Positions 2,752 through 46,867 of a DNA stretch of 51,496 nucleotides are shown in pieces. The position numbers were made by a program, and so were the translations under genes. Numbering within the stretch: position 1 is the stretch's first letter; every line of letters starts with the position of its first letter. Origin of the DNA: a virus (Duplodnaviria; Caudoviricetes); IMG/VR virus record IMGVR_UViG_3300021178_000015, positions 1-51,496 of that record, one strand, 5' to 3'. The notes beneath the pieces are model-generated. The model made no database searches. It saw nothing but the letters and a program-made list of their open reading frames with translations, and was not told the origin of the DNA.

Positions 2752-3072
2752 GTGTCGTTATTTCCGTGGCTCAGTCAACCGCCGCCAACGCTCAAAGAGT
2801 TGACGCCACGGGAGCGCATGCTTGAACGGCTCAAGTTCGGCGTGCCGCTAGAGCTTGCGGCGCGTGCGGCCGGGCTCCGTCCGGAAAACCTCAAGGAAGA
2901 CCCGGAAGTTGATAAGGCGATGGCCGAAGGCGAGATTTTGCTATTCGAACGCGCGCGAGACAGCAGCGTAACGGGCATTGTACGGGCCGCTATGCGTCGG
3001 GAAGCGGAGAGTTGGTTACCCAAGGCGGAACCCAGTTCGGCGGGCTCGCTTGAAGACCTTTTGCGGGATTAA
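2752..3072 (+). CDS. Putative terminase small subunit / HTH protein
   Basis: 106 aa; GVPLELAARAAGL HTH-like segment followed by a helical region; function is inference. Confidence 0.4.
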   Translation: MSLFPWLSQPPPTLKELTPRERMLERLKFGVPLELAARAAGLRPENLKEDPEVDKAMAEGEILLFERARDSSVTGIVRAAMRREAESWLPKAEPSSAGSLEDLLRD

Positions 3073-3232
3073 TTTTATTCATCCACGGCGCGCGGTTGTT
3101 TGCGTCTCGTTTCAAACACGCGGGGATACCGTCGTACTTTGCGCATTCTGCTGGGTGCAGACAAGACGGACAGTTAATGTTTTCGCAACGGGACGGATAA
3201 GGGTCCAGCTTAGTTTCCCAGGGTAACGTCAT
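2990..3232 (-). CDS. Hypothetical Cys-rich protein (MTLPWETK...)
   Basis: GGAG RBS before ATG at 3232; Cys cluster; converges on and overlaps the 2752-3072 gene. Confidence 0.5.
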   Translation of the reverse strand: MTLPWETKLDPYPSRCENINCPSCLHPAECAKYDGIPACLKRDANNRAPWMNKINPAKGLQASPPNWVPPWVTNSPLPDA

Positions 3233-3289
3233 TTCGACGGCTCCGTATTTATGTGCTGCCGACATTCGTACGCCGGCAGCACAAATATT

Positions 3290-3445
3290 TTAGCGTGTGC
3301 GACCCATGTACACAACGCGAATTGGCTGCGCCGATTTCGTGACCTGCCAACCGACGATATCGGATATCGTCAGAAATACGAGCCCCAACACAACAACGGC
3401 GCCAAAACTCAGGAAAACTCCGACAAGCAAGCGTGCGAGTACCAT
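3290..3445 (-). CDS. Small membrane protein (51 aa, MVLARLLVGVFLSFG...)
   Basis: Translated by hand; AAAGGAGG RBS and an upstream TTGACA promoter near 3537; one hydrophobic helix. Confidence 0.65.
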   Translation of the reverse strand: MVLARLLVGVFLSFGAVVVLGLVFLTISDIVGWQVTKSAQPIRVVYMGRTR

Positions 3446-3556
3446 TTCAACCTCCTTTGCGTGTTGTACACATTTTTCTGTACAAACGTAGTACGTACAG
3501 CGCTGTACACATAGTTCCGTACAAGGAACATGTCAAGCCGCTACATTTAGGCCCCA

Positions 3557-3605
3557 TTGTCATACACCCCACAAAATGTGGACAAAAACCCTTGATGTAT
3601 GACAA
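3557..3605. promoter_or_regulatory. Inverted pair of TGTATGACAA operator-like sites in divergent promoter region
   Basis: ttgtcataca 3557-3566 and tgtatgacaa 3596-3605; the motif recurs at 22426, 22440 and 29056. Confidence 0.6.
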
Positions 3606-3665
3606 TCCGGCGTGTTATCGGTGATTTGGTGAAGATTTCCAACCGCGCCCATAGGAGGCTATACC

Positions 3666-4403
3666 GTGCAAATTGTTAACCAGCCCATTTTGGGCGGCGG
3701 CTTCCGCCACTATTCCGGTTTGCTGCCCGCGATCAACGCAGCCGGCGACCCGTTCCACGCTTCTGTGAGGCTTTTCCACGTCCCGGCTGCGGACACCAAC
3801 GCGATGTTCCGCGGTGATATCGCCGTTGCGTCGTCGGGCTCGATCGGTACCCAAGGCGGCGCCGACAACCCGGCCAACATCGGCCCGCCGGCCGCGAACC
3901 CGGCAACCACCGTCATCGGCAATGGCGGTGGTTCGGGTCTGGGCAACCAATCGATTGCGCCGAACATCACGCGTTGGGTGCCCGCCGATACCACGTCGCT
4001 GATTGTCGGCGCCATTGTCGGCTTCGGTCCGATCACGCTGTACATGGCCAAGAACGGCTTCCAGTACAAACCGGCGAGCTTCGAAGCGTGGTTCTGGGTG
4101 GAGACGGACCCCGGCATGGAATTTACCGCGACTGTGCCCACGGTGCCCGGGACCGCGTTCAATTTGCAGCTCATGGACGGTATCGACGTGAAGGCGAACG
4201 CGGGCTTTCAGGCGACGCGCTTCGGCGTCTCCGGTCTTTCGCTGGACCCGGCAACGATTGCGACCACGGCCACGCTGCCATTGCGCATCCTGGGTTCGGG
4301 CGAGCAGATCGGCAACGACCCCACTTCGCCGGGCTTCGTCGCGAAGGTGACTTTCAACAAGAGCCGGCACGCATTCGCCAACGGCGTGAACGTCGCCGAC
4401 TAA
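3666..4403 (+). CDS. Putative head decoration/cement protein
   Basis: AGGAGG RBS; resembles the beta-rich protein (GFR...MFRGDI...TATLPLRILG) that usually precedes this type of major capsid gene. Confidence 0.6.
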   Translation: MQIVNQPILGGGFRHYSGLLPAINAAGDPFHASVRLFHVPAADTNAMFRGDIAVASSGSIGTQGGADNPANIGPPAANPATTVIGNGGGSGLGNQSIAPNITRWVPADTTSLIVGAIVGFGPITLYMAKNGFQYKPASFEAWFWVETDPGMEFTATVPTVPGTAFNLQLMDGIDVKANAGFQATRFGVSGLSLDPATIATTATLPLRILGSGEQIGNDPTSPGFVAKVTFNKSRHAFANGVNVAD

Positions 4404-4471
4404 CGAGAACATGGCGAGAGCGTCCGTACGCTCTCGCTTCTCACTGCACCCTGAAACGAGGATACAGGACA

Positions 4472-5050: not shown

Positions 5051-5062
5051 CAGCGCCTAGCA

Positions 5063-11297: not shown

Positions 11298-11298
11298 C

Positions 11299-15008: not shown

Positions 15009-16592
15009 GTGACCGCATATCCTTGGGAACAGCCCCCGCAATCTTCGTATCCGTGGCAGCAGTCACAGCCTGCGGAGGCGGAGCGCAAGGCAGCGATGCG
15101 GGCCAAGCTCCGCGATTTTGATTTCTATCGCGAGCGGTTTTTGCGTATTCGTCCGCGTGCCGGCGGCGAGCGCATCCCCTTTATTTTGAACAACGCCCAG
15201 CGCGTCCTGCATGCCCGGCTAGAAGAAGAAAAGAAGCGGTTCGGCATGATACGCGCGCTCGTGCCCAAAGCGCGGCGCATGGGCGTGAGTACGTATATCG
15301 GCGGACGCAACTTCCATCAAATCGGAACCATGTTCGGTCGGCGGGCCCAAGTGGTGGCGCACCGTGGAGACAGCGCAGCTAACCTGCATCGTGAAATTAA
15401 AGAATTTGCTAACAGCTTGCCGGGCGCCGTACAGCCGTCGATTGGTGCCACCAACTCTTATGAAGTGATATTTGACGTCCTTAAGTCGCTGTACAAAGTG
15501 GCGTCGGCTGAAGGTGGCGACATCGGCCGTTCGGATGACTTCCATAATCTGCATCTGTCGGAAGCCGCGTTCTTTGATAACACGGAAGACCTTTCGTCTG
15601 GTTTGTTGCAAACCGTACAGGACTTGCCCGGGACGGAAATCATAGAAGAGAGCACGGGCAACGGCCAGTCCGGCATGTTCTATAACCAATGCGAGGAAGC
15701 CGCGCGGCAAGGCAACAAAGGTCCGTGGCGCATCCACTTCCTACCGTGGCCCGTCATGCCGGAGTACCGTCAAACCGTGCCAGTGGGCTGGAAAGCGCCC
15801 CAGGATTTTGAAGAGTACGCGCGCATGCATGGCGTAGACCGGGAGCAGTTATACTGGTTTTGGACCAAAAACTATACGATAGCCGTTATGAATGGCGGGC
15901 AACCGGAGAAAATCCACCGGCTCACGCGTCAAGAGTACCCGGCCATCTATAGCGAATGTTTCATGGCCGACAGCACGCTTGATTTCTTTCCGGCGTCTGT
16001 CGTGTCCGCGGCGATGGTGCGCAAGCCGAACCCGTCCGCCGGGGCGCTGAAGCTGCTTTGCGTAGACCCTGCCGGCGACGGGCAGGACAAGCCATTTGTC
16101 TGCGATCGGCAGGGCTCCGCGATCGGCGCCAAGGTTTGGGGCGAGCTGACAAGCCGGGACTACAACGTGCAAGCTGACTGGCTTGTGGCTACGTTTAAAC
16201 GTTTCGATATGGATGCCATCCTTATCGACGTAACCGGGACCGGCAAAGGGCTGCTAGACGCCGTACGGCTGCGCATGCGCGCGTACGGTCCTGAAAAGGT
16301 GGTTGCGGTCAACTTTGCATGGGGTGCTTTGAATGACACACTGTACGGCAACCGGCGCGCGGAACTGCACGACAAGTTCCAGCGTTGGTTGCAAAGTGAC
16401 GTATCCATGCCGAACGACAAGATGTTGCAGGACGAATGCGCCGCTTATAAATGGGGCGTGGGTGGTTGCCGTCGCGATGAAAAAGCGCGGCTGTTCATGA
16501 CGCCAAAAGAAAAAATCAAGAAGGAATTGAAGCCTACGCGTTCGCCCGACCGCTTGGACGCTTGCGTCGTTTCGATGGCGATGGAAGCTTGA
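15009..16592 (+). CDS. Terminase large subunit
   Basis: LNNAQ adenine motif, KARRMGVST Walker A, LHLSEAAF Walker B, ESTGNG, VDPAG and SPDRLDA nuclease motifs. Confidence 0.93.
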   Translation: MTAYPWEQPPQSSYPWQQSQPAEAERKAAMRAKLRDFDFYRERFLRIRPRAGGERIPFILNNAQRVLHARLEEEKKRFGMIRALVPKARRMGVSTYIGGRNFHQIGTMFGRRAQVVAHRGDSAANLHREIKEFANSLPGAVQPSIGATNSYEVIFDVLKSLYKVASAEGGDIGRSDDFHNLHLSEAAFFDNTEDLSSGLLQTVQDLPGTEIIEESTGNGQSGMFYNQCEEAARQGNKGPWRIHFLPWPVMPEYRQTVPVGWKAPQDFEEYARMHGVDREQLYWFWTKNYTIAVMNGGQPEKIHRLTRQEYPAIYSECFMADSTLDFFPASVVSAAMVRKPNPSAGALKLLCVDPAGDGQDKPFVCDRQGSAIGAKVWGELTSRDYNVQADWLVATFKRFDMDAILIDVTGTGKGLLDAVRLRMRAYGPEKVVAVNFAWGALNDTLYGNRRAELHDKFQRWLQSDVSMPNDKMLQDECAAYKWGVGGCRRDEKARLFMTPKEKIKKELKPTRSPDRLDACVVSMAMEA

Positions 16593-22448: not shown

Positions 22449-22560
22449 GTCAAGGCCTTACCGTACACTAATTTGACGAAATCCGCAGCATCAGCTATTT
22501 TGTACCAATTCGCACGCGCCGGCCTGCAACGCCGGGGAACCATTGAAAGGGGTTATTCGC

Positions 22561-31310: not shown

Positions 31311-33274
31311 TTGCGCATCCGATCGGCCTCATAACCCTCACAATCGAGTGGCAATCCTGCGGTCCACGACCGGGGCCGGCGCATGATCTCGCGCATCTGC
31401 TCCGATCGCTGCTTGGCAATGGAAGCCGGCGCCAGCGAGAGTATGCTATCATAGACATCAAGGATCAACACAACATCCGGCAGCTCGTTTTCTATATCAG
31501 CTTCGGCCGCGGTCACCAAGTCACGCGTGCAGCTCTGACAGAAGATTTCGAGCAGCGAACCGCCGAAAGCTTTCTGTCGCATCATGGCGCCGAACTTCGC
31601 TCGGAAAAACTGCATTTCTCCGGTCGGCGAAATGTGTGCGGAATAGTGCGGCACGGCGCGGCCGGACGGCAGTAGCATCCACACCGTACCGTGGCTGTCT
31701 TTCTGGAATGCAATTCTGTTATTAACCGGGAAGATACGGCCGGGCTGTTCATAGATCGCAAACTTGAAGGCGTCGGCCAAGTCGTACCAAAGCCGTACAA
31801 GTAGCGGATTGGCTTGGCGGTAGCCGTTGATATCGATCATGGCTTTTTGGTCGGTTATCTCGTGACGTTTCAAACCGTTTTCCGCAGCCGTACGAATAAG
31901 GAATGCGAGATACGTACGCCATCCTAGCTGATAGTTACCGCCAAGCGTCACGCTCTTGAACGTCTGTCGTTCTTTGGGGTGGGTGGACTTAGTAGCGGTT
32001 TCCGGCAGGTTCAAGCACTGCCGGGCGTTGTACATGTATAAGTCGCTGCCCGGTGTTGCGATGATGTTTAAACGTTCCGTGTCGCCCGCGAGCCAAAGCG
32101 CGAAGCGCAACTCTGCTTGGGAAGCGTCGTTGTCGCACACCATCCAGCCCGGGGGCGCCACAATGCAGCCGCGAAGGCAGTCCGTCAGGGCACTGTTGCC
32201 TAGCGACGTGTGACCCTGCTTCAGCCGGTCGATAAGCTGGTCTATGGTGGCGCGGCCTTCCTTGCCGTCGTACTTACCGGACGGCCGCGCAATGTTGAAC
32301 ATGTTCGCGCCTTCGGACGTGCCGCGCCCCGATCGCGCACCGAAGTATCGTGTAGCGTCTTTGTAAAAGCCGTTGACGTGCCGGTCTAGCAGGGCTTGTG
32401 CTTTGAGCGGAGCCGAACCGCCTTCCGCCTGTAGCAGTTCCAGAACAATCCGTACGTCAGGATGCAGGTTTTCGTCAGTGAGTTTTTCCGCAATAATGTG
32501 CTTCTGCGTGTTTTCCAGTCCGGCAGCGCGGTTGCCGCTGTTGGCCCAATCGAGGATACGCTGGCGTTGCGAAAGCTTGGTCACCGCATTGTTGGTGATT
32601 TCCATAAGCTTCGCGGTGCTCTCTTGTTCGATTTCCTGCCGGCGCATCGCAATCGCGGTTGCCAAGCTGATATCGATCGGGAGCCCGATTTCGTTTTTAC
32701 GCCACGTACGCTCAAAGATCAGGCGTTCGGCTGGCGACAGCGGCGGCAGGCGCGCGTCAACATCCATGAGGCATTCAACGTCGCGCAAGTTGTACGCGAG
32801 CAGCTTTACGAACGTCTCGATTTTTTCGTGGAACGTGCCATCTTTTTGCGGCTTGCACGTCAGCATCACGAGCGCGCGGCCTTGCGGGTCTTTGCCCCGG
32901 ATGCCCAGCGCCATGCATAATTCGTCAAGGCCGCCCGGGAAGGCAATCGCCTGAGCGCGGCCCATGGTGCAATCAATCTTGCTCAGTTCGATCTGTACGA
33001 ACGGATTTTGCCGCTTAATCACGTTCACGTCGAAATTGGCGTGATGCGCAACGAAGCGCCGGCATTGCCGGATATCTTCGTAAAAGTCCGCCATCGTATG
33101 GGAGCCGATAGACGGATGTAATGTGCACGCAGTTTTGTACACACCGCGGAACCACCAACACGCCGTGGTTATCTGGGTGGATGGGCAAGCTGCATAGCGC
33201 CGCGCGCCCGCTGTCTTCAGGTTCGTACGGCTGCGTGTTTCTACGTCGGCGAATAAATCGTCAAGCTGCGGCAC
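31307..33274 (-). CDS. DNA polymerase, family A (phage type) with 3'-5' exonuclease
   Basis: DVETRS (ExoI), HHANFD (ExoII), YNLRDV (ExoIII), DASQAELR (A), RQTFKSVTLGGNY (B), VYDS (C variant). Confidence 0.92.
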   Translation of the reverse strand: MPQLDDLFADVETRSRTNLKTAGARRYAACPSTQITTACWWFRGVYKTACTLHPSIGSHTMADFYEDIRQCRRFVAHHANFDVNVIKRQNPFVQIELSKIDCTMGRAQAIAFPGGLDELCMALGIRGKDPQGRALVMLTCKPQKDGTFHEKIETFVKLLAYNLRDVECLMDVDARLPPLSPAERLIFERTWRKNEIGLPIDISLATAIAMRRQEIEQESTAKLMEITNNAVTKLSQRQRILDWANSGNRAAGLENTQKHIIAEKLTDENLHPDVRIVLELLQAEGGSAPLKAQALLDRHVNGFYKDATRYFGARSGRGTSEGANMFNIARPSGKYDGKEGRATIDQLIDRLKQGHTSLGNSALTDCLRGCIVAPPGWMVCDNDASQAELRFALWLAGDTERLNIIATPGSDLYMYNARQCLNLPETATKSTHPKERQTFKSVTLGGNYQLGWRTYLAFLIRTAAENGLKRHEITDQKAMIDINGYRQANPLLVRLWYDLADAFKFAIYEQPGRIFPVNNRIAFQKDSHGTVWMLLPSGRAVPHYSAHISPTGEMQFFRAKFGAMMRQKAFGGSLLEIFCQSCTRDLVTAAEADIENELPDVVLILDVYDSILSLAPASIAKQRSEQMREIMRRPRSWTAGLPLDCEGYEADRMRK

Positions 33275-33436: not shown

Positions 33437-34351
33437 TCAGCGTGACGGCCAAGCACCGCCTTGCGGAGCGGCGCCCGGGAAGGTTTGCTGCGGCTGGTTA
33501 GAAGGGAATGTCGCATTCCCATTTGGCGCGCCGGGCATCCCACCATGGGCCGGGGCACCCCCGAAAGCAGGCCCCGCCGTATTCTGAGAGGCAAACCCCC
33601 CTTGGGGGCCTTGGTGTGGGTTCCCAGGGAAACCGTTGCCGTTCTGCGGTCCCTGGGGTGCCGTAAAACCCCCGTGCTGCGGAGCCCCGCCGAAGCCCTG
33701 GGGCGCGGTCCCAAAACCTCCGTTCTGCGGACCGCCAAACCCACCCGGCGACGGATTGAAGCCGCTGGGCCGGTAGCCCTGGGCCTGGGCAGCCTGCATC
33801 AGCTCGGCACCGCTAATCGAGTTGCCAATAGCGATTTCCTCGCCGGGCGCCGTGAACACCACGTTGTTGATGTAGAGTTTGATCGCACGGGCATTCTGCG
33901 AGTTGACCGCCGCCGCTCCGCCGACGATGCAGAAATCGCCGGGCTTCACAATGTTGCCGCGGGCCTGAAGTGGTACGAGCGTGGCGCCCTGCGACAGTTC
34001 GACCTTGATCGCGTCACCGGAATTGCCGGAAAACATCCACTGGCCGCGCGCCCAGTCGGCCGGCGGCTGCTGGGGGTCTTGCGGCATGTCGCCGTCACGA
34101 ATGGGCCACGTCACAGCCTCGTAACCGAGCCCGCCCATGGTCGCGGCGTGGATTTTCTGCATCGCACCCCAAAGGTTCTGAAAAACGGGCTCCATAGACC
34201 AATGCGGTTGAGTTTTTGGCACGAGGAAACCGCCGAGCCAATTTGGTTTTGTCGTCTGGCCTTTGTATTCGGTGCTGGGTTGCCAAAGATTTTTCATTCC
34301 GTAGACCCGCGCGCCGAAACACATGAAATTTTCGTACTGCTTTTTCGCCAT
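33437..34351 (-). CDS. Single-stranded DNA-binding protein (DUF2815-like) with Gly/Pro/Gln-rich tail
   Basis: PIRDGD and IKLYINNV motifs; position between exonuclease and polymerase. Confidence 0.7.
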   Translation of the reverse strand: MAKKQYENFMCFGARVYGMKNLWQPSTEYKGQTTKPNWLGGFLVPKTQPHWSMEPVFQNLWGAMQKIHAATMGGLGYEAVTWPIRDGDMPQDPQQPPADWARGQWMFSGNSGDAIKVELSQGATLVPLQARGNIVKPGDFCIVGGAAAVNSQNARAIKLYINNVVFTAPGEEIAIGNSISGAELMQAAQAQGYRPSGFNPSPGGFGGPQNGGFGTAPQGFGGAPQHGGFTAPQGPQNGNGFPGNPHQGPQGGFASQNTAGPAFGGAPAHGGMPGAPNGNATFPSNQPQQTFPGAAPQGGAWPSR

Positions 34352-34613: not shown

Positions 34614-35603
34614 TTAATAGGCGGCTTTAAGCTCGCCTGTCGGTTTGTGGGCGGCAACCGCAACATACTGCTTGCCAGCGAGGCCCTGCTTTTCGAGCTG
34701 TGCCGGTGTAAGCGGCCTTACACCCTTGGCCCCGTACGTTTGGTAACCAAATTCTGCCGCGTGCTGCGGGTCGTTGAACGCGCGCCAAGATCGTACGGGC
34801 TTCAATGTTGCGCCTTCGGCTTGCCGGCCCATTTTAAGATGGGTCGTTAATGCATCATCATAGACAGGTTTCATGTCGCCAAGCGCACGGATAAGGCGCA
34901 ACAGCCGTACAAGGTCTTCCGTTGTCAGGTCTTCAATGCGCCGCGTCATCGCGCCCATGACGAAACCGGCGTCGGTGGACATGGCTGGGCATTGCTGGAA
35001 CGCCTTGCACCAACGACACCACGGCCCAGGACGCGGCGGGCTGCGATCGGCGATGGCGCGCAACATGCGGTCCCGATGCGCTTCAACCTGGGACCGATGG
35101 GCTATCCACTGTTTAAACGGCTTTTCATCCAGTCCGTTCGGCTGGAAGATCACGAACCGCCACCATTCGGCATCCGTCATCGGCAGCGCCATGGCGCCGT
35201 ACGATAGCATCTGCGTGTTGTGATGCGCGTCAACGTCCCACTTGCCGTTTTTCAAATCGAGCCATGTAACGATGCGCGGCGCTTCGTTCCAAAGATCGGT
35301 CGTGCCGCCGCATTCTTCGGTAAGACGAAGCTTCAATTCCGTGTGGATGGTGCCGGGCTCTAGCTGCCGTACGAAATCTAGGCCTAAGGCAATGGCGTCG
35401 GCTGCGGTGTCGCCTTCTTCCGGCATTTCCATTTCGGAAATCGCCACTTCGAACAGCGTGTGTACGCGCGTGCCTTCGTCGGCGGCAAGCTTCGTCTTCA
35501 GCGGTTTCGGCGGTTCCGGTACGCTGTGGCGAGCGCTGTACGTGCACTCCAGCCATGTTGACGAACTGGACGGCGCGTAAATATCGTGGTGCTGATCGGA
35601 CAT
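34614..35603 (-). CDS. Cas4-like PD-(D/E)XK exonuclease (DUF2800-like)
   Basis: APSSSSTWLEC, AADEGTRVH, GGTTD...DLKNG, QMLSYG, PGPWCRWC...CP. Confidence 0.85.
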   Translation of the reverse strand: MSDQHHDIYAPSSSSTWLECTYSARHSVPEPPKPLKTKLAADEGTRVHTLFEVAISEMEMPEEGDTAADAIALGLDFVRQLEPGTIHTELKLRLTEECGGTTDLWNEAPRIVTWLDLKNGKWDVDAHHNTQMLSYGAMALPMTDAEWWRFVIFQPNGLDEKPFKQWIAHRSQVEAHRDRMLRAIADRSPPRPGPWCRWCKAFQQCPAMSTDAGFVMGAMTRRIEDLTTEDLVRLLRLIRALGDMKPVYDDALTTHLKMGRQAEGATLKPVRSWRAFNDPQHAAEFGYQTYGAKGVRPLTPAQLEKQGLAGKQYVAVAAHKPTGELKAAY

Positions 35604-35970: not shown

Positions 35971-36459
35971 TCAGCCGCCCATCAACTTCGCCATATTCTC
36001 CAACTGAGGCATGCCGAGCGTGGGAACCTTGAACTGCCAAATCTGGTCCGGTGTCATGTTCGCCAGATCGGGCGTGTTGCCGCACTGTCCGCGGAGCCAC
36101 GCCAAGGCCTGGGCGGCGCTTTCCGTGCTCATGGCGGCGCCGGCATCGTACTTGGCCTTGATGCGTTCGATAAGGGCCGCAGCCGCGGGCGCGACCAGGG
36201 GGGCGCCTTGCGGCTGCGCGTTCGGAAAGCCTCCGCCGTTGCCCGTCTGTCCAGCGCCGGGGAAACCGCCGCCCTGGGCAGCGCCCGGGTTGAACGTCTG
36301 CCCCTGAGGCGGCATGATCGGGTTTGGCGCGGTATGGCCGCCAGCGGCACCCGCCGTACCGGTTTCGCCTTCGTCGGCGCCGCCCTTGCCGGTCCGTGGC
36401 TTCTTCAGCTTGGTCACGAAGTCCAAGACTTCTTCGATGGTGTCGAAAGTGAATTGCAT
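35971..36459 (-). CDS. Hypothetical protein with Gly/Pro/Gln-rich linker
   Basis: AGGAG RBS and TTGACG promoter near 36520. Confidence 0.75.
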   Translation of the reverse strand: MQFTFDTIEEVLDFVTKLKKPRTGKGGADEGETGTAGAAGGHTAPNPIMPPQGQTFNPGAAQGGGFPGAGQTGNGGGFPNAQPQGAPLVAPAAAALIERIKAKYDAGAAMSTESAAQALAWLRGQCGNTPDLANMTPDQIWQFKVPTLGMPQLENMAKLMGG

Positions 36460-36752: not shown

Positions 36753-38426
36753 TCACCTTTGATGTAAAACCCCATGCACGTCGTAAACTCCGCCGACAAG
36801 ATATCGACCGTTCTGCGCCCGCTTCAGATAAACCGAATGCGGCGCCGGCAAATCCTCGTACGGCCAGATCGCAGTCGCATACATCGTTGTCAGTAGCCAG
36901 CCGCCTGAGCTGTTCTTGACCGGTGGCGAGACGATTTGCTGCCATGGGTTCTTTTCGATCAGAGCTTTGACGTTGACGGCTTCAGCTCCGCCGCCGCGCG
37001 TCTTCAGGTCTTTGCCTGGGGCCTGCGATATCGTGTTGTCGAAACCGCAGAACGGGCACAGCGGATGCAGGAACGCGGCGTAGACTTCTTCGCATGCGGC
37101 ACACTGCTTGACTTCGGTTTGCTGCTGTCCGCAATGAGGGCAGCGCATACCGTGGAAGTGCGGGTCAAAACGTTCCGTACACATTTTGCACTTGGGCGCG
37201 CTCTTGTGGATTTCGCCGCAACCCGGGCACGTCTTGCCGTGTTCCCAGGTCTCCCACTCTCTGCCGCAACCGATGTATAGCTTGCCGCCCTTGGTGACTT
37301 CTTCGCACGTCAACGCGCGGCCGGGCGAGGCCATCACAGCGTCAAGCGTGCCGTGTCGGTCGAGATTGCCGCCAAAGTCCGATAGCAAACAATTGGCAGC
37401 GTACGGCGTGATCCGCGCTCCGCGGCCTAAACCTTGAGCATAATAGACGGCTGATTTGGTGGCGCGACAGAAAGCCATATAATCGATATGCAGCATGTCA
37501 AAGCCGGTGTTGAACATGTTGCACGAAACTAGCAGCGGTATTGCTCGCGCCTTGAAGGCAATCACTGCCTTGTCGCGCTTGCCGGGTGGCGACTGCGAAT
37601 GAACGCCAACGGCGCAGCCTGGGTGAATTTTGTTAAGCTGCCATTCCAGCTTATCGACGTGTTCGACGTTGCAGCAGAACGCGAGTGCGCAACGCCGGTT
37701 AAATTTCGTCATTACCTCGATTATCGTCTTGGCGTGCGAAGGCGCCAGCTTGATCGCCCTGGGCGCCATTTCGTCAAGGTCAAAATCGCCCTTCACAGTG
37801 GCGAGGCCGGCAACGTCGATTACTTCATCTTCGCCGGCATCAACGGGAACGATGGGCTTCACGTAGCCGTCCCGCAACGCGTCCAAGAAGGTATAGCGGA
37901 ATACGATCGGGCCGAAGGTCTTTGCCAGATCGCCAGTGCCATCGGCGCGGAAAGGCGTGCCAGTGAGCCCGTGGATTTTGGTATGCGAGAGCTTTTCGAA
38001 CAGCCGGCGATATTGCGACGACTTGGCTGGCGGCACCATGTGAACTTCGTCAACCAAGATTGCGACAACATCGCGAAACAGATTAACACGGTTGATGATG
38101 GTTCCGATGGTGCCCACGGTCACGCGAGCAAAGGCATTCGTACTTATCGATGACGAACAGATACCCGGGCTTATGCCGTGGTTCTTTGCCGCGGTGGCGT
38201 TGTGGCCTACCAGTTCTTTGTTGTGGGCAACGATCAGAACGCGGCCGAATTGGCTGTAATGCAGTGCCAGCATGCCCAACATATCGGACTTGCCGCCGGC
38301 TACTGTAATTTCGGCCACCGAGAAGCGTTCCTCGTACGCGATCAGGGCGGAGACGCCAGCCGTTTGGTGCGGCCGGGGAACCCACGGTACGGGCGTTAGT
38401 GCTGTTGTGTTGTTCCAGAAATTCAT
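36753..38426 (-). CDS. Superfamily 2 (DExH, RadD/YejH-like) helicase with C-terminal Zn ribbons
   Basis: TVAGGKS, VDEVH, GLTGTP, TGFD, QGLGRGAR; multiple CxxC; start probably MNFW. Confidence 0.9.
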   Translation of the reverse strand: MNFWNNTTALTPVPWVPRPHQTAGVSALIAYEERFSVAEITVAGGKSDMLGMLALHYSQFGRVLIVAHNKELVGHNATAAKNHGISPGICSSSISTNAFARVTVGTIGTIINRVNLFRDVVAILVDEVHMVPPAKSSQYRRLFEKLSHTKIHGLTGTPFRADGTGDLAKTFGPIVFRYTFLDALRDGYVKPIVPVDAGEDEVIDVAGLATVKGDFDLDEMAPRAIKLAPSHAKTIIEVMTKFNRRCALAFCCNVEHVDKLEWQLNKIHPGCAVGVHSQSPPGKRDKAVIAFKARAIPLLVSCNMFNTGFDMLHIDYMAFCRATKSAVYYAQGLGRGARITPYAANCLLSDFGGNLDRHGTLDAVMASPGRALTCEEVTKGGKLYIGCGREWETWEHGKTCPGCGEIHKSAPKCKMCTERFDPHFHGMRCPHCGQQQTEVKQCAACEEVYAAFLHPLCPFCGFDNTISQAPGKDLKTRGGGAEAVNVKALIEKNPWQQIVSPPVKNSSGGWLLTTMYATAIWPYEDLPAPHSVYLKRAQNGRYLVGGVYDVHGVLHQR

Positions 38427-38431
38427 AGAAG

Positions 38432-38701
38432 CTAGGTTCCGTGACGGCCGCAACTGATGATCTGAGTGCAATATGGACACGGGGCGGGCGGCTCGATTAC
38501 GTTGCCGGCGCTATCAAGCTCCACAGTTTCGAGCTGTCCGTTCCTATAACGCAGCATTGTCGGCTTGTTCGGTTCACGACCGCCCATCAAGGTTTCGCGG
38601 AAAGATTTCTCAAGCGCAGCCTCAAAGTAGGCGCGCGTTTGCGGGCTGATTTCTTCGTCGCCGCACTCGATTATTTTATGTTCGATGGTGTACTCGGTCA
38701 C
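38432..38701 (-). CDS. Hypothetical protein
   Basis: 89 aa, coupled operon gene. Confidence 0.6.
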   Translation of the reverse strand: MTEYTIEHKIIECGDEEISPQTRAYFEAALEKSFRETLMGGREPNKPTMLRYRNGQLETVELDSAGNVIEPPAPCPYCTQIISCGRHGT

Positions 38702-39778: not shown

Positions 39779-40087
39779 TTAATGCAGGGCGTCCCAGAAA
39801 CCGACGATTAAGCCTTCGTCGTCTTGCAAGAAACCGCCGCGCTCCAGCCGAACCCATTCATTCCAGCCTGGGTATGACGTGTACATGCGACGCCACGGGC
39901 TATCTGTACTCTCGATTATGGCCAGATTTGGCGTGTCAAGAGGCTCGGTTTGCTGGCAAATGTCCACGCAGGCCAGATAAGCGCCCCGACCGGGCGGTCG
40001 GCTATGGATGGCGCGTATTTCGTTAGCGTAGGCCGGGGGCGCCAGTGGGCTGCCGGCGACGAATGAGAAAGGCCAATAGCGTGTCAC
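39779..40087 (-). CDS. Hypothetical protein
   Basis: GGAGG RBS, GTGA-coupled start. Confidence 0.55.
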   Translation of the reverse strand: MTRYWPFSFVAGSPLAPPAYANEIRAIHSRPPGRGAYLACVDICQQTEPLDTPNLAIIESTDSPWRRMYTSYPGWNEWVRLERGGFLQDDEGLIVGFWDALH

Positions 40088-40422
40088 GGGACTACCTCCA
40101 ATCCTAGTTGGTGCGCCGTCTCCCAAACTTGCTTCACAAGTTCGTGTACGGATGCAATATAGGGCGTGTTCGGCTGGGGCATGCCGACGTCCTGAAATTC
40201 GAGCGTGCTGCCGTCCGTGAATTTGCACTCCCCGCGCGGAATGATTTGGCCCCGGGGGACGTTCACGAGCCGTTGCAGCGCCGGATGCTTGCTGTGGACT
40301 AGTATGCCAGTGAGCTGCACGGCGATGGCGAAATCACGTTGCAGGGCCGCCACCTTGTCTTCAGTGGTCGGCTGCGCCGGTACGGGCGGTTCCCAAGGAT
40401 AGCGTTGGATTTCAGTGCTCAC
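40084..40422 (-). CDS. Hypothetical protein (N-terminal YPWE)
   Basis: 112 aa, within the operon. Confidence 0.65.
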   Translation of the reverse strand: MSTEIQRYPWEPPVPAQPTTEDKVAALQRDFAIAVQLTGILVHSKHPALQRLVNVPRGQIIPRGECKFTDGSTLEFQDVGMPQPNTPYIASVHELVKQVWETAHQLGLEVVP

Positions 40423-40612
40423 GGTCCGCTCTCTGCTTTTCTTGGCATGATTTCTCCCACTGCTGGCAGCTATCGCTTCCGTACTTGACCGTGCCGAGTT
40501 TCAAACACGGCGCTTTCTTCTTTCCAGTTTCGTCGGCGGTTCCAGCGTCGCCGTACCACATGTTGCAGCGTGAGCACGCACGGAGCGGAAGCGGGTTAAT
40601 CAGCATTCCCAT
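40412..40612 (-). CDS. Small Cys-rich protein
   Basis: CSRC...C...C. Confidence 0.55.
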   Translation of the reverse strand: MGMLINPLPLRACSRCNMWYGDAGTADETGKKKAPCLKLGTVKYGSDSCQQWEKSCQEKQRADREH

Positions 40613-40854
40613 GGTAACGCCTTTCGTAAGTACGTTGCGTCTTCAGGATAGACTATTGCGCCTAAGTCTTCGTTATAGGCGTCTGTCCAAACCACGGCAA
40701 TTGTTCCGGCTTCAATGATGGTGACGGTTCCGCGACTGGCGCCGGAACAGACGACATCACCCACGGCATACTTTGAAGACTGCGGTGCGTCGCTCCAAGG
40801 ATACACTGCTTTCCGTCCATTGTCGTCTTGCCGCATTTGCAAACCCCGTTCCAT
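40600..40854 (-). CDS. Small KOW/SH3-like protein
   Basis: KYAVGDVV...RGTVTII...VVW; ends LPWEC. Confidence 0.55.
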   Translation of the reverse strand: MERGLQMRQDDNGRKAVYPWSDAPQSSKYAVGDVVCSGASRGTVTIIEAGTIAVVWTDAYNEDLGAIVYPEDATYLRKALPWEC

Positions 40855-40872
40855 TCCTCCCAGGGGAGCATA

Positions 40873-41070
40873 TCAGCCCCCGAACAACACGGGTTCGGCT
40901 TTGTTGAGCAGTGCACACACCGCGGCAGGGTCTATCCCTTCGGAAACAATGCATACGCGAAAACCCATGCTTGCACCAAAATCGCTCTGTACGGGACGGT
41001 GAAAAATCGCGTCGCCCCGCACGTAGTAGAACGGTGACGTGTCGATCTCGATAACCTTCAATGCTGCCAT
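40873..41070 (-). CDS. Hypothetical protein
   Basis: GGAGAG RBS, start MAALKVIE. Confidence 0.55.
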   Translation of the reverse strand: MAALKVIEIDTSPFYYVRGDAIFHRPVQSDFGASMGFRVCIVSEGIDPAAVCALLNKAEPVLFGG

Positions 41071-43121
41071 GGGTAGCTCTCCAGCTTCGTTGTGGGTATC
41101 TGCACAGTCCAGTTGACCGTAAGAGGCTGCTGTACGGACCCGGCGGGCGAGTACACAGCGTAGAAAGGACATCCGCGCATTGTACGGAAGTGTCCGGAAT
41201 TTAGCAAGCTCTGCATGCCCTCTTTTTCAAATAATTTTAGGGCAGCATCCTTGCTGATAACAAACGCAGGCACAGAGCCGTGTACGGACGCGCCTAGCTC
41301 GGCGGCAACGCTATCGAACGGAACCATGTTGCCGGCGCGGAGTGCATCCATTCCGCCGTTAGTGACGCCGGGCAGCATTGCGCCGAGCCGTATCATTGCG
41401 CTCTGTTCGCGCTGCTGCGGTGTCGTGATGACTTCGCGTTTAAACACATTCACAGTTGTTGCGCGCCCCTTGCTGTCGTTGCCGTAGTGCTCCGAAATAA
41501 TTCTGCCGGTGTAGCTCTTTGCCTTTGGCGCACCGCGCGCTTTGCCGCAGTCGATCGACACGATATCTTGCCGGCCGGCGGTGACGCGATACATGAAACC
41601 GCTATTGCCAGCCTTGGCGCCGTTGCCCTTCTGCCAAGCATCCTCATTGCCGAGCGGCAAGTGGTCCGTGACAATCATCGCGGCGCCCGTACGAAAGGCG
41701 ACATTCTTCAAAATGAACATCGCCTTCAGGACGCTTTCGGTATCGTTGTCGGCAAAGCAGAGCCCTGACGACGCCCAGGTATCCAGCACGAGCAAATCGA
41801 CACGCATGCCCATTGCGGCCATCGCAGCGACTTGGCCCAAGCAGTCTTGCTCGAAGGAGCCGGGATTGACGCGCGGTATCAGATGGAAGCGCGAAGCCAG
41901 TTCGTTGCCGTTCGGCTCTTGCCGGATAAGATGCCTTACGCGTCGTTCTGTGCCGTAGTCATCTTCAGCGGCAACCCATAATACGTGACCGTCACTCCGT
42001 TCAACATCAGCCTCAAGCCATCCGCGTCCATTAAGCAAAGCAACTGCCAAGTCCGAAACGACACTAGATTTTCCAGCTCCAGAATGTCCCGTAAAAAAGT
42101 GTACCTCTCCGCAGAGAATACGCTGATACAGAAGCCACGGTAACTCATTTGTGCTATCCTCCAGTTTCAGTTCAAAGCCCGTACGAGCCTGCAACGTCGG
42201 TGCCGTCTGTCCGTCATGCAGGCCTTGCAGAAACGTACGGCGCGACATGATGGCTTGCATTATCAGGTTGCCGCGCAACACCGGCAACTGGTCATGGCGC
42301 ATGATCTCTTCGCCCAGAACACGCCCGCCGTGGCCTTCGGATAGCGAGTGGCCCGCGCTGGTTATCGCGGTTTCGATTTCTTCTCGTGTGCATAAGCCGT
42401 TCTGTTCGGCGAACTTCAGCACCCCGACAAGCGAAAAGATTGTGGAGCCGCGGCCTTCCGTACGGCCCATCAAGTCCTGTTTGAGCAGTCCTAAATAGCG
42501 CTTAGTGGCGTCGCGGCCGGCTTGCCATTCGTCTTGCGTTCTAGGTTTGGCTTCGTGCAGTTCGTCAACACTGGCGGTTTCGTGCTCAGCACTAAAACGT
42601 AAAGACGTTTCAGCTCGTGCAGGTACTTCAGACAGTATTTGCTGGAGTTGCGCCGTCGTGATTTGCGGCCAATCTGCATCCCAATTCTCCCATTCGTACG
42701 GTTGTCCGGTGTCTTTGTGCGGGCCGAAGGCGACGAATTGGCCGCCCATCAATTGAAGCTTGTCTCCGTCCGGAAACGTGAAGGTGCGGCCTTGTACGGG
42801 CGCGTCTCTTAGAAAGAACGGTATCAGGAAGCGCGGTTTCCGTCCCCATCGCACGGGCACAGCCGGGCCAAGCACGCTACGGAACGCCTGTAAGAGACGC
42901 CCAGACATTTCGGGGTTTGATACGTCACAGTCGAATGCTGTAAGACCGCCGTCTCCGCATCGGAGCCCGACGCTGCCGGCGCCTGGGTGGGGTATTGGTG
43001 ATGTCCAAACATTCCAGCCGTCTCCGATCGGGGCCTTAGAGCCCCTTGCGATAGCTAGCGGAAAAAGCCCCCTTGCGCGGGCTTGCTCCCAAAATTCTTG
43101 GATGGTAGAAGGTAACGGCAA
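41058..43121 (-). CDS. Bifunctional primase-polymerase fused to AAA_25/RecA-family helicase
   Basis: SKAP...GW...VGLRCG...AFDCD...QFVAFGPH N-terminal domain; GHSGAGKS Walker A, AAED, LLVLDT. Confidence 0.85.
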   Translation of the reverse strand: MPLPSTIQEFWEQARARGLFPLAIARGSKAPIGDGWNVWTSPIPHPGAGSVGLRCGDGGLTAFDCDVSNPEMSGRLLQAFRSVLGPAVPVRWGRKPRFLIPFFLRDAPVQGRTFTFPDGDKLQLMGGQFVAFGPHKDTGQPYEWENWDADWPQITTAQLQQILSEVPARAETSLRFSAEHETASVDELHEAKPRTQDEWQAGRDATKRYLGLLKQDLMGRTEGRGSTIFSLVGVLKFAEQNGLCTREEIETAITSAGHSLSEGHGGRVLGEEIMRHDQLPVLRGNLIMQAIMSRRTFLQGLHDGQTAPTLQARTGFELKLEDSTNELPWLLYQRILCGEVHFFTGHSGAGKSSVVSDLAVALLNGRGWLEADVERSDGHVLWVAAEDDYGTERRVRHLIRQEPNGNELASRFHLIPRVNPGSFEQDCLGQVAAMAAMGMRVDLLVLDTWASSGLCFADNDTESVLKAMFILKNVAFRTGAAMIVTDHLPLGNEDAWQKGNGAKAGNSGFMYRVTAGRQDIVSIDCGKARGAPKAKSYTGRIISEHYGNDSKGRATTVNVFKREVITTPQQREQSAMIRLGAMLPGVTNGGMDALRAGNMVPFDSVAAELGASVHGSVPAFVISKDAALKLFEKEGMQSLLNSGHFRTMRGCPFYAVYSPAGSVQQPLTVNWTVQIPTTKLESYPWQH

Positions 43122-43200: not shown

Positions 43201-43767
43201 TTACGACGATTGCCACGGATAAGTCAAATTGCTACCCGTGGTATTTTGTACCGTTTCGCAGCCTATGGCGCGCATGGCCGCCGGCAGCTCGTATTGCGCG
43301 AGCCGGGCTTTCAAGACTTGGACTTCGCTGAACAGTTCGCTGTTGCGTGAGTACAGCCCGGCTAGTTCCTCCTTCATGGTGCTGTTAGCCATACGCAGCT
43401 TATCAGGCTCGCCGACACCCGTACACGCGAAACCTGCCACCACGCAACGCACGGTGCTGTCCCACGCAATAAAACCTTTTTCGAAAGCCGGCAACAAGCC
43501 CCGATGCAGGTCGCATGTACGGTTGCTGAAACGCGAATTGGCGTCTACTTGACCGACTTTTTCGAACACGGAGTATTTCTCTCCGCATATCGCGCACGGC
43601 CGTTGCCACTCTTTCATGTGCCGGTATTGCTTGCCGTTCAATTGAACGCTGTCGTGTTGGGCGGTTTCCACCCATCCTTCACGGTTGTGCCGGCTGGGTA
43701 CGTCAATGGGCAGCTCGCCGGGTTTCGCAAAGCCGCCGCGCATGCGTTCGCCTCTCGTAAAGCTCAT
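43201..43767 (-). CDS. Hypothetical protein (Zn-binding plus coiled coil)
   Basis: CAICG...CDLH; ends YPWQSS. Confidence 0.7.
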   Translation of the reverse strand: MSFTRGERMRGGFAKPGELPIDVPSRHNREGWVETAQHDSVQLNGKQYRHMKEWQRPCAICGEKYSVFEKVGQVDANSRFSNRTCDLHRGLLPAFEKGFIAWDSTVRCVVAGFACTGVGEPDKLRMANSTMKEELAGLYSRNSELFSEVQVLKARLAQYELPAAMRAIGCETVQNTTGSNLTYPWQSS

Positions 43768-44850: not shown

Positions 44851-45294
44851 ATGAACCTACCGGCTACCCGGCTTTCACAGTATGCGATGCAATCGGCTTG
44901 TGAAGAGATTGCACGGATACGGCCATTCGTACGGAAGGAAAGCACAGCTTTGACGACGGCTTGCAGACAGGCGGGCATGCCTATGGAGCTGGCGGAAGTT
45001 TGCGGCGGACTGTTGGCCTCCGTTGTGGACGATTTAGTTGCCGCAAGCGGCTTGCCCAAATCGAGCTTTGAGCGTACCAAGCGAATGGTTCGCGTTTTGA
45101 AGACCGCCCAGGAGCCGGCCAGTCACGCGCTACGGTTGGCCATGGCAGCGTCGCCAATCAACGGGGAAGCGGCTGTGATGCACTGGGACGCTATTTGCGA
45201 AGATCGCGAAAGAGGCAAGTTGGCGTGGCTGCTCGGCATGAGCACTGAGGCAGCTTGGAAGTACGGCAAGCGCATGGAAAAGATGACGGCATGA
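44851..45294 (+). CDS. Hypothetical protein
   Basis: 147 aa, ATGA-coupled to the methyltransferase. Confidence 0.6.
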   Translation: MNLPATRLSQYAMQSACEEIARIRPFVRKESTALTTACRQAGMPMELAEVCGGLLASVVDDLVAASGLPKSSFERTKRMVRVLKTAQEPASHALRLAMAASPINGEAAVMHWDAICEDRERGKLAWLLGMSTEAAWKYGKRMEKMTA

Positions 45295-45755
45295 AAATTT
45301 TGGACGTGTCCGCCGGCAACCGCGCTATCTGGTTTGACAAGTCGCACCGTGACGCGCTTTACATTGACGTACGGCCGGAAGTCAAACCAAATATCGTTGC
45401 GGACGCACGAGCGTTGCCGGCGGAGATCGCGGGGCCGTTCGATTTGATTGTGTTCGATCCGCCGCATGAAAATTTTGGCGCAAGCGGCAACATGGTGCGT
45501 AACTACGGTCATTGGACCCATGCGCAAATCAGGGGCATTGTTGAGGGGACGGGCAAGGAAGCGCACCGCGTTGCGACCGTACACGGTTTGAGGGCCCTCA
45601 AGTGGAGTGAGCATTCAATTCGGCTGAAGACGGTTTTGGAACTGCTCGCGCCTTGGTGGGAACCGCTATTTGGTCACGGCGTATCGCACCAACAAAAAGG
45701 CACGTCCTGGGTCATGCTGCGGCGCCGTGCGTATCCATGGGAGCTGGTTGCGTGA
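45291..45755 (+). CDS. SAM-dependent DNA methyltransferase (amino-MTase, DPPH)
   Basis: ILDVSAGNRAIWFDK and FDLIVFDPPH, KWSE, PLFG. Confidence 0.85.
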   Translation: MKILDVSAGNRAIWFDKSHRDALYIDVRPEVKPNIVADARALPAEIAGPFDLIVFDPPHENFGASGNMVRNYGHWTHAQIRGIVEGTGKEAHRVATVHGLRALKWSEHSIRLKTVLELLAPWWEPLFGHGVSHQQKGTSWVMLRRRAYPWELVA

Positions 45756-45961
45756 GTTACCGCCCGTACAAATGCGAAGCATGTAACCACGTCGTACAGC
45801 ATCCATCCATGCTGCGCTCGATACCGCGCTGTCCGAAATGCTACGGTCCGATGGAAAACATGCAAATCGCAGCGGCGTTCGGCGGGCACGGCAAACAGGA
45901 CTATGACCAATATCTGCTAAGTCAACGGCGGGGGCCGACCAATGAGGGCAACACGGATTAA
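45752..45961 (+). CDS. Small Zn-ribbon protein
   Basis: YKCEAC...CPKC; GTGA-coupled. Confidence 0.55.
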   Translation: MSYRPYKCEACNHVVQHPSMLRSIPRCPKCYGPMENMQIAAAFGGHGKQDYDQYLLSQRRGPTNEGNTD

Positions 45962-46044
45962 AGCTTGGCAACACATTTTCGTGATATCTCGTGAGTACAT
46001 GGCCATTGTTGAGCTGATGCACGCGCACGAATGGGAGAAAGACT

Positions 46045-46218
46045 ATGAACGCACCCACAACCATCCAGTACGACCGTATCGTACAGGCGGAAAAGGCGCT
46101 TATTGACGGCGGCTTCGTACGGGACAATCGAAACGCCATCTGGGTGAACGACGCCGGGCAGCGCGCCAAGGTGATGCGCGACAACGTGACGAAGAAATTT
46201 TACATTTTGCAAAAATAG
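46045..46218 (+). CDS. Small hypothetical protein (57 aa)
   Basis: Translated by hand; GGAG RBS. Confidence 0.6.
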   Translation: MNAPTTIQYDRIVQAEKALIDGGFVRDNRNAIWVNDAGQRAKVMRDNVTKKFYILQK

Positions 46219-46280
46219 GGCTTGACGGCGGTTCTGTACGGGTCCATATTGCGTACACACAAACCGCTGGAGAGCGACAA

Positions 46281-46598
46281 ATGACCATCCAAATTAACAC
46301 CGCTGAAGATGCCACCGCAGCCGCACTGTTCAATTCGGCGAATGCCGTTGACGAACTTGGGCTTATCAAGGCGCAGATCGCCGAATTGGAGCAGAAGGAG
46401 GAGGCGCTTACCGAAGCGCTTAAGGCGACCGGCAAGACCAGCTTCGCCGGCACGTTCTTTGACTGCTCGATTTCGCACAGCGAACGCGCCAACTTCGATG
46501 TCAAGCAGCTCCGCGCCGACCTGGGCGAAGATGCTTGCGCGCCGTACGTCAAGGCGCCGACGAAGGTTGTTACGCTGAAGCTGACTGCGAAGAAGTGA
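46281..46598 (+). CDS. Coiled-coil hypothetical protein headed by conserved leader motif
   Basis: TTGACG promoter and CCGCTGGAGAGCGA (46264-46277). Confidence 0.75.
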   Translation: MTIQINTAEDATAAALFNSANAVDELGLIKAQIAELEQKEEALTEALKATGKTSFAGTFFDCSISHSERANFDVKQLRADLGEDACAPYVKAPTKVVTLKLTAKK

Positions 46599-46606
46599 GG
46601 GGCAAC

Positions 46607-46867
46607 ATGGCCAAGAAAGAGCAAGTGAACTGGAACAGCTTCACCAAGGCGGAGCTAATCAAAACCATCCGTACGCTGCATGTGCGACAGACCAAGCTGT
46701 TGAACCGCATTGCAGAGCTGGAGACGAAGCGCGCGCCCGCCATGGAAGACAACCCATACGCTGCCGGGGCCGCCGCGCAGCGGTACCCGTGGGAAACGCA
46801 GCTTGCTAACACCGTCACGTACGAGCCCACCAACGGCAAGCCGAACTGTCGGAAGGAAAATGAATGA
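46607..46867 (+). CDS. Hypothetical coiled-coil protein (contains YPWE)
   Basis: GAGG RBS. Confidence 0.65.
   Translation: MAKKEQVNWNSFTKAELIKTIRTLHVRQTKLLNRIAELETKRAPAMEDNPYAAGAAAQRYPWETQLANTVTYEPTNGKPNCRKENE

Follow-up and report, generated by a model that had tools for sequence, protein, structure and literature searches.

We describe a short peptide motif, a hydrophobic residue followed by Pro-Trp and then by Glu or Gln, that recurs near the ends of unrelated proteins of an uncultured phage (Duplodnaviria; Caudoviricetes). The DNA analyzed, referred to below as the window, is the whole of IMG/VR virus record IMGVR_UViG_3300021178_000015, 51,496 bp long, with an estimated completeness of 98% and a G+C content of ~58%. 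The motif (the "tag") is carried by at least nine unrelated protein families: the terminase large subunit (TerL), a PrimPol-helicase, a ParB-like protein, the small proteins gp188, gp112 and gp106, the overlapping pair ORF-A/ORF-B, and two unrelated methyltransferase families. We hypothesize that hydrophobic-Pro-Trp-[Glu/Gln], often followed by a further Pro, is a docking short linear motif that is private to this phage lineage and is read by one shared partner, and we consider this the probable explanation; that a partner is bound, and that there is just one, is what we infer from the patterns described here.

Genes were called with our own codon-usage log-odds heuristic and named by searches of Pfam and PHROGs, which gave 71 genes and 14,828 residues for the window. 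The carriers and their tags are as follows.

TerL, 15009-16592, + strand: named by tblastn to annotated terminase large subunits; YPWE at 15018-15029 and YPWQ at 15048-15059, on an N-terminal extension of ~35 residues.
gp106, 2752-3072, + strand: small helix-turn-helix (HTH) protein; N-terminal FPWL at 2761-2772.
ParB-like/DUF6551 protein, 23601-24500, - strand: phrog_1033, E 7e-10; PF20188, E 4e-5, below cutoff; N-terminal FPWE at 24471-24482, overlapping an inverted repeat at 24469-24484.
gp112, 40084-40422, - strand: N-terminal YPWE at 40390-40401, then PPVP.
ORF-B, 40600-40854, - strand: small Tudor/SH3-like-looking protein; YPWS at 40792-40803 and C-terminal LPWEC, up to the stop codon, at 40606-40617.
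ORF-A, 40662-40871, - strand: Cys-rich protein; LPWE at 40857-40868, MPWV at 40758-40769 and LPWF at 40689-40700.
PrimPol-helicase, 41058-43121, - strand: PrimPol plus AAA_25 helicase, 687 amino acids (PF09250, PF13481); C-terminal YPWQH, up to the stop codon, at 41064-41075.
gp188, 43201-43767, - strand: Zn-ribbon (CxxC...CxxC) plus coiled coil; C-terminal YPWQSS, up to the stop codon, at 43210-43221.
Accessory DNA methyltransferase, 45255-45755, + strand: phrog_954, E 1e-25, residues 12-154 of 166; C-terminal YPWELVA, up to the stop codon, at 45732-45743, beyond the phrog_954 match.
Uncertain open reading frame (ORF), 2990-3232, - strand: begins MTLPWE (3215-3226), with GGAG 8 nucleotides (nt) before the ATG.
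Uncertain ORF, 46607-46867, + strand: internal YPWE at 46784-46795; not picked by the gene caller.

A preliminary description of this DNA, made from its letters alone, had listed most of these peptides, and every one that it listed is present where it was placed; the start tag of ORF-A (MLPWEE, 40857-40868) is an additional site. Two of its carriers are doubtful as genes: the ORF at 2990-3232 had a tblastn match in 0 of 76 related loci, and that at 46607-46867 (46535-46867) matched in only 2 of the 76, L039 (in two pieces) and L057. Its assignment of the motif to packaging, replication and early proteins alike was borne out, as was its placement on extensions outside the conserved domains: tblastn homology of TerL to annotated terminases begins at residue 35-36, past both tags, and the methyltransferase match ends at residue 154 of 166. 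C-terminal tags occur in five families. The label "TerS-like" for gp106 did not fare as well. This 106-amino-acid protein has a weak NarL-type HTH profile match (E 0.65) and a plausible position, and Pfam and PHROG scans gave no hit for it, so that a small terminase is a possible identity. When gp188, gp112 and gp106 were compared as profiles with solved structures, coiled-coil or weak HTH matches were all that came up. ORF-B looks like a small beta-rich domain whose Atlas neighbors are the PcrA/UvrD Tudor domains (template modeling score 0.5-0.6, from a low-confidence Atlas model); we treat the Tudor/SH3 likeness as a lead only. Just downstream of PrimPol (40600-40871, - strand), ORF-A and ORF-B share ~190 nt, read in different frames, and each is conserved in many relatives. 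The head of ORF-A is Cys-rich, and the DNA for its probably disordered, tag-bearing tail also encodes the folded domain of ORF-B.

The motif is far more frequent than chance would allow, and we regard the observation as genuine and confirmed. In six frames, [YFL]PW[EQ] occurred 12 times, compared to 0.88 ± 0.99 expected from 300 dinucleotide-preserving shuffles (maximum, 4). Read in the frame of the 71 called genes, it occurred 9 times, compared to 0.22 in 2,000 within-protein residue shuffles, none of which reached 9, and the broader [FYLMIVW]PW occurred 17 times, compared to 5.0 ± 2.2 expected. Twelve of these 17 sites lay among the 20 residues at the start or the 10 at the end of a protein, a zone that holds 14.4% of residues (binomial P = 2e-7), in agreement with the terminal bias that had been proposed. 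The underlying DNA string, CCNTGG[GC]A, showed a clear excess in coding phase 0, with 12 sites there; each of the two remaining sense phases had 2, the antisense strand had 7, and 5 fell between genes. Across 1,378 pooled called genes, PW stood 1, 2 or 3 residues before the stop codon in 31, 21 and 16 genes, respectively, compared to ~2 to 3 per bin, and it also heaped at positions 2 to 8 from the start. The end bias of [FYLMIVWPG]PW was seen in five genomes (P = 2e-5 to 0.046), including each of four further complete genomes (G001-G004). In a control with 39 dipeptides, PW ranked second by terminal share (153/490). YW ranked above it; 18 of the 37 terminal YW cases are one capsid-protein site, and a single PrimPol site dominates the FW cases, whereas the terminal PW cases are spread across at least 8 families.

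Comparison with relatives showed that PW is retained in orthologs at 60 to 80% identity. For this comparison, we used IMG/VR loci fetched around TerL (37 loci), PrimPol (27 loci) and the ParB-like gene (11 loci), together with the four complete genomes. PW was found in the first 25 residues of 32 of 39 TerL orthologs, in 1 to 3 copies; those at 62 to 81% identity carry N-terminal sequences such as MFPWEA, MPWETPP and NINPPWETVRPPWEP, with three copies in L030. In all 28 cluster members of the PrimPol-helicase, PW falls within the last 10 residues and is followed by 0 to 3 residues. In an independent sample of 120 database homologs (64 to 94% identity, from a 5.8-billion-protein library), 109 carry xPW among their last 6 residues and 91 have a second P[WF] ~10 residues upstream; PrimPol homologs with E ≤ 1e-10 number 154. 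gp188 was tagged in 21/21 orthologs, with P184 and W185 invariant in 13 aligned sequences (alignment A1) that run from Zn-ribbon through coiled coil and variable linker to the tag. For gp112, 14/16 orthologs were tagged, and P9 and W10 were invariant ahead of the conserved globular part (14 sequences, A2); for gp106, PW was in the first 25 residues of 9/10 orthologs, with W6 invariant (A7). Inspected by eye, the complete N-termini of the ParB-like protein read FPWE or LPWE in 8 of 8 orthologs. A hidden Markov model search for ORF-B found 19 stop-to-stop ORFs in the loci; their complete ends all carry hydrophobic-PW, several have the N-end tag, and P81 and W82 are invariant (A6). ORF-A had tblastn matches in 26 loci, with tails holding 2 to 3 PW copies (e.g., SMPWE..SLPWT..RLPWE, up to the stop codon). 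In alignments A1, A2, A6 and A7, Pro and Trp are thus invariant while the adjoining linkers differ in length and sequence. In these alignments, the motif forms a conserved island in poorly conserved flanks of variable length, and it is found separately in proteins that are not related to each other, beyond their globular domains; both are properties expected of a short linear motif.

Accessory and replaced genes carry the tag too. Relatives have no ortholog of the window methyltransferase at the same position, and two homologs elsewhere end in SWPWEL and KMPWQA. In G002, a different methyltransferase (PF01555, matching residues 19-231 of 242) ends in EPYPWEMP, outside the domain, and in G001, an AAA_25 helicase without a BLAST match to the window PrimPol-helicase ends in MRMPWQ. 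The tag is private to this lineage, as judged by the more distant relatives of TerL: those at 44% identity or less are untagged, as are the distant homologs of the cultured phages Bas95 and H6/1, and among the best 150 cluster representatives from a 1.84-billion-protein library, two entries, both of the same family, are tagged.

A logo of 103 distinct instances reads [K/S/M/R]-[F/M/Y/L]-P-W-[E/Q]-x-P, with F38, M28, Y15 and L9 at the position before Pro, E49 and Q16 after Trp, and Pro enriched downstream. The residue before PW varies among genomes in a concerted way. It is Y in TerL, PrimPol, gp188 and gp112 of the window, M throughout two other genomes and F in several, and in one sub-lineage TerL, PrimPol, gp188 and gp106 together have G or P. 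Within a genome, different families agreed in 0.443 of pairs, compared to 0.246 ± 0.033 expected (5,000 permutations, none of which reached the observed value), a figure that is indicative only, coming as it does from a hand-compiled table with one motif per family and from statistics that ignore shared ancestry. Inheritance alone would not bring different families into agreement with each other, and the sharing of one pre-PW residue across families points to a single shared reader for all copies.

We propose that these families, nine or more and unrelated to one another, bear the tag on N- or C-terminal tails that are probably flexible and would use it to dock onto one shared partner. By reading the tag, this partner would bring together the proteins for packaging, replication and DNA modification and the small early proteins, and the most plausible site for such a gathering is the replicating phage DNA. 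Where a protein has more than one copy (1 to 3 in TerL, 2 in the PrimPol-helicase, 2 to 3 in ORF-A and one at each end of ORF-B), the additional tags would strengthen, through avidity, its hold on a partner that is oligomeric or bound to DNA. The preliminary description, which had inferred a docking or degradation tag that recruits its carriers to one hub, is in this respect supported in kind.

The reader may equally well be encoded by the phage or by the host. Should it be a phage protein, the gene content of G001 narrows the choice, since this genome is tagged yet lacks gp162, gp147, gp112, gp188, ORF-A and the window-type PrimPol; a phage-encoded reader would then sit among the genes that G001 shares with the window. 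By tblastn, the shared set comprises the family-A DNA polymerase (PolA), a protein akin to those binding single-stranded DNA (SSBs; hereafter the SSB-like protein), exonuclease, superfamily 2 (SF2) helicase, HNH endonuclease, TerL, gp106 and virion genes, the last including those for proteins of 645 and 491 amino acids; gp171, gp185 and gp225 also belong to the ~25 proteins common to all tagged genomes. The first four in this list are untagged, and they map in the window as follows.

PolA, 31307-33274, - strand: family-A DNA polymerase; phrog_17, E 2e-62.
SSB-like protein, 33437-34351, - strand: T7 gp2.5/Enc34 type; PF10991, E 0.0026, below cutoff.
Exonuclease, 34614-35603, - strand: phrog_69.
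SF2 helicase, 36753-38480: phrog_16.

PolA, a candidate reader, is present in all of G001-G004 and has PW at neither end in the 20 orthologs listed. The same tblastn searches eliminated gp162, gp147, gp112, gp188 and ORF-A as a universal reader, none being found in G001. ORF-B was rejected as well: it is itself tagged, and it has a tblastn match in none of G001, G003 and G004. The PcrA Tudor domain is described in PMC8318588 as reading a beta-hairpin motif, [VIL]-D-x-x-T-G-E, and not Pro-Trp.

Among the shared proteins, the OB domain of the SSB-like protein is slightly favored as a candidate reader, by analogy with other systems. In crystals of T7-type SSBs, the tails occupy the concave OB sheet of their neighbors (PMC5686142), and another OB domain, RPA70N, reads short motifs of more than 20 partners (PMC10479964). 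Proteins of replication, recombination and packaging would also naturally meet at an SSB, and the tip of the phage protein itself, NPF[AG]PR in relatives, shares Pro-aromatic-x-Pro with many tags. The best PDB profile hit of the protein is 4JG2 (E 0.026), a DUF2815 protein that PMC5686142 assigns to the T7-type SSB group. Complex predictions for PolA and for the SSB-like OB part (residues 1-200), each paired with TerL residues 1-32, gave an ipSAE of 0.00 in both runs, which were made without controls and carry no weight for or against binding. The tail of the SSB-like protein (~110 residues in the window and 60 to 130 in relatives) is rich in Gly, Pro, Gln and Phe, with GGF, GFG and PQG repeated; its conserved tip, non-acidic unlike the tips of classical SSBs, reads NPF[AG]PR in the majority of relatives, and the window has GGAWPSR there. 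gp162 (35971-36459, - strand) has a similar Gly/Pro/Gln/Phe-rich middle between two small helical ends. The last ~40 residues of the exonuclease (PAQxEKLG..GK.Y.AV..HKPE..LK..Y, up to the stop codon) form, in many relatives, the C-terminal part of a separate 136-amino-acid protein (e.g., L044:6416-6823 and L049:7126-7533) and may thus be a shared small domain.

We also looked among noncarriers for families that changed together with the tag in the lineage with G or P before PW. The top family was gp171 (19885-20400, - strand), in which 7 of 41 conserved columns had changed, mostly in its C-terminal MPDPxTLEW stretch. gp171 reads as a GroES-type co-chaperonin-like protein with that stretch as a C-terminal extension; its sole two PDB profile hits are 10-kDa chaperonins (E ~0.4), and Pfam gave none. 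Its change is indistinguishable from ordinary divergence, the G/P lineage being one to three genomes.

The tags might instead work as stickers rather than plugs, with no folded reader at all, the aromatic Pro-Trp peptides partitioning their carriers into a condensate of SSB-like and gp162 tails that would serve as a membrane-less factory for replication and packaging. We think this unlikely. It would fit the composition of the ~110-residue SSB-like tail, rich in GGF/GFG/PQG, and of the similar gp162 stretch, the several tag copies on many carriers, and the absence of a reader domain from the scans of the window proteins. However, the strict invariance of Pro and Trp, with Glu or Gln preferred after them, makes a defined pocket likelier than generic stickiness, the lineage-wide change of one flanking residue likewise suggests a specific pocket, and tblastn finds no gp162 in G001, the most distant tagged genome. 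If stickers were nonetheless at work, multivalent tags and SSB-like tails could build a membrane-less compartment on the replicating DNA of a 51-kb phage, a picture we hold to be equally doubtful; the tag would then be an entry ticket gained by adding four residues, a minimal counterpart of protein sorting by the jumbo-phage nucleus.

A single reader would explain the co-variation just as well if it were an unfoldase or protease, encoded by host or phage, for which the tag served as a degron or remodeling handle that times turnover or disassembly. Known bacterial degrons do lie at free N- or C-termini, as these tags do, and the preliminary description had named degradation as one possible role. 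Such a signal would be odd on TerL, a late and abundant enzyme, and on replication enzymes, and docking ligands typically have tandem copies and Pro-rich flanks like these; among the proteins scanned, no protease or unfoldase gene was seen, and the sole AAA-type domain was the AAA_25 domain of the PrimPol-helicase. We consider a role in degradation quite unlikely.

It is very unlikely, in our view, that the tag is an address label directing proteins into the procapsid, or to the portal, so that they are injected with the DNA. Terminase is not a virion component, a 687-amino-acid hexameric helicase would be improbable cargo, the tags sit at either end of proteins with nothing to suggest cleavage, and the window proteins of internal-virion type lack them. 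These points outweigh the usefulness that the methyltransferase, the ParB-like protein and the small early carriers would have on incoming DNA, and the need of TerL, and of a possible TerS, to meet the portal.

Finally, the preliminary description had raised a quasi-palindromic DNA site as an alternative, and the start context CC-NTG-G could be a signal of a related kind. An inverted repeat of 16 nt does exist at 24469-24484 and spans the ParB-like tag, and the codons for Phe-Pro-Trp-Glu (TTC CCN TGG GAA) by themselves yield its arms. In the PrimPol tag, the NTG of CC-NTG-G opens the next ORF (at least 40 codons) in 22 of 27 relatives and also in the window; the tag of ORF-B in the window likewise holds the start codon of the next gene, and that of the methyltransferase probably does. 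The Pro-Trp tag thus appears to double as a translational-coupling junction, an arrangement that would leave N-terminal and tandem tags unexplained. As a general explanation, a DNA- or translation-level signal (TTCCC-NN-GGGAA or CC-NTG-G) is refuted: TTCCC-N(1-2)-GGGAA occurs just twice in 51.5 kb, once out of frame in the SSB-like gene, the coding-phase bias is strong, flanking codons vary, and N-terminal tags, some in tandem, lie 2 to 14 codons inside genes. The FPWE look-alike noted near 33620 is indeed out of frame, at 33621-33632, in the Gly/Pro-rich tail of the SSB-like gene. The synonymous variation remarked on earlier extends to all four Pro codons in five of the six families counted among orthologs and to three in the sixth, PrimPol. 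With the phase bias, the use of all four Pro codons, the mere two palindrome-like sites and the invariance of PW in variable linkers, the signal acts on the peptide and not on the DNA.

Several observations weigh against a docking motif with one reader. YW outranked PW in the dipeptide control, and the end bias of bare PW within single genomes is modest (P = 0.002 to 0.03). Retention is incomplete: 11 of the 120 PrimPol homologs have no xPW in the last 6 residues, and with automatic choice of start codons only 9 of 16 ParB-like orthologs were tagged. The shift in the G/P lineage is also incomplete, as gp112 and ORF-A keep MPW there, and the co-variation table has the weaknesses of hand compilation and uncorrected ancestry given above. 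With a start codon inside the PrimPol tag, part of the constraint on it may be translational. Certain PW sites, such as NPWEGP in an acetyltransferase and the end of gp202 (SPPWxxxKG[IV]), may be parts of a fold and not tags. The late-gene protein gp202 (24784-25392, + strand) has this ending in 19/19 orthologs, with PW six residues from the end, and its Pro-Trp may be either part of the fold or a variant tag. Lastly, Pfam and PHROG scans of the window proteins revealed no clamp or known peptide-reading hub; a remote clamp fold among the unannotated proteins is possible.

Other features of the record bear on its nature and host. Two genes complete the map used here.

Capsid protein, 22543-23493: PF25209.
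Giant transglycosylase-bearing protein, split across the record ends: phrog_4067.

The ORFs at the two ends of the record (1-2211 and 49668-51494, + strand) join into one gene of ~1,340 codons, which includes the transglycosylase part and has (GGGGP)n repeats at the junction; the record thus looks circularly permuted or arbitrarily opened. No tRNA genes were found in the window. We found no close cultured relative, the top TerL matches in the phage collection being at most 31% identical, and no relative in the bacterial genome collection. The sole, and weak, hint of a host is the NCBI label on a PrimPol-helicase homolog that is 75% identical (P0035), which reads Planctomycetota metagenome-assembled genome. 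The product of 17096-17584 (+ strand), for which no family match was found, has a Lys/Ala/Pro-rich, histone-H1-like stretch followed by an apparent ribbon-helix-helix end and may be a DNA-coating protein.

If one partner does read the tag, then 4 to 7 residues would be enough to enroll a protein in the replication and packaging machinery. This would account for the integration of newly acquired accessory genes, such as the two unrelated methyltransferase families and the unmatched helicase, and it would provide a physical link between DNA packaging and replication; in T4, to our knowledge, that link is known through indirect contacts only. The tag peptide would also be a bait with which to find the hub of an uncultured phage lineage, and the concerted change of one tag position in four proteins of one sub-lineage would amount to a natural experiment on the evolution of a docking code.

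Close functional parallels exist with the clients of sliding clamps. The gp45-binding C-termini of gp43, gp33 and gp55 in T4 and RB69, bacterial QL[SD]LF and the eukaryotic and archaeal PIP boxes are all short peptides of this kind, and phage-specific versions of clamp-binding peptides exist. Clamp clients resemble the tagged proteins described here in that a short terminal peptide marks DNA enzymes unrelated to each other, along with partners of the polymerase and a eukaryotic DNA methyltransferase; theirs is read by one ring-shaped hub. The hydrophobic-Pro-Trp-Glu/Gln sequence is unrelated, however, and its logo does not match QL[SD]LF; Pfam and PHROG scans detected no clamp family among the window proteins scanned, and DNA polymerase, the foremost client of a clamp, lacks the tag in the 20 orthologs listed. 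T4 also provides a short terminal peptide that serves unrelated phage proteins as an address, the capsid-targeting sequence, which occurs only at N-termini, labels cargo of the virion and is cut away by the prohead protease; the phage tag differs in occurring at either end and on terminase and replication enzymes as well.

Two replication systems offer further parallels. In eukaryotes, the OB domain at the N-terminus of RPA70 (RPA70N) reads short motifs in more than 20 partners, PrimPol included (PMC10479964). There, as here, the motifs lie on loose parts of DNA-processing proteins, among them a PrimPol C-terminus, and the phage has in all tagged genomes an untagged T7-type SSB-like OB protein that could, by analogy, be the reader. 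The ligands of RPA70N are acidic-hydrophobic helices, and the phage tags are Pro-Trp peptides. In T7, the C-terminal tail of gp4 binds the gp5 polymerase. The gp2.5 C-terminal tail binds gp5 too, and SSB tails occupy the OB cleft of neighbors, as PMC5686142 describes. Like the T7 replisome, the phage has a primase-helicase whose C-terminal tail contains an aromatic residue, in a podophage-type replication module that also includes a family-A polymerase and an SSB of T7 type. Unlike the T7 tails, which are acidic with the aromatic residue last, its tags are non-acidic, lie 0 to 6 residues from the end or are N-terminal, and extend to the terminase, ParB-like and methyltransferase proteins, and its SSB-like tip is NPF[AG]PR. 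Literature searches on PW-type motifs turned up nothing on phage or DNA-enzyme docking among the matches listed, and one on short linear motifs and tryptophan in connection with phage terminase and primase likewise listed nothing relevant. We regard the motif, its set of carriers and its concerted drift as new. By analogy, the arrangement would work as the clamp/PIP, RPA70N or T7-tail systems do while being a member of none of them, because its sequence differs, no clamp was recognized, the polymerase is untagged and the tags are non-acidic.

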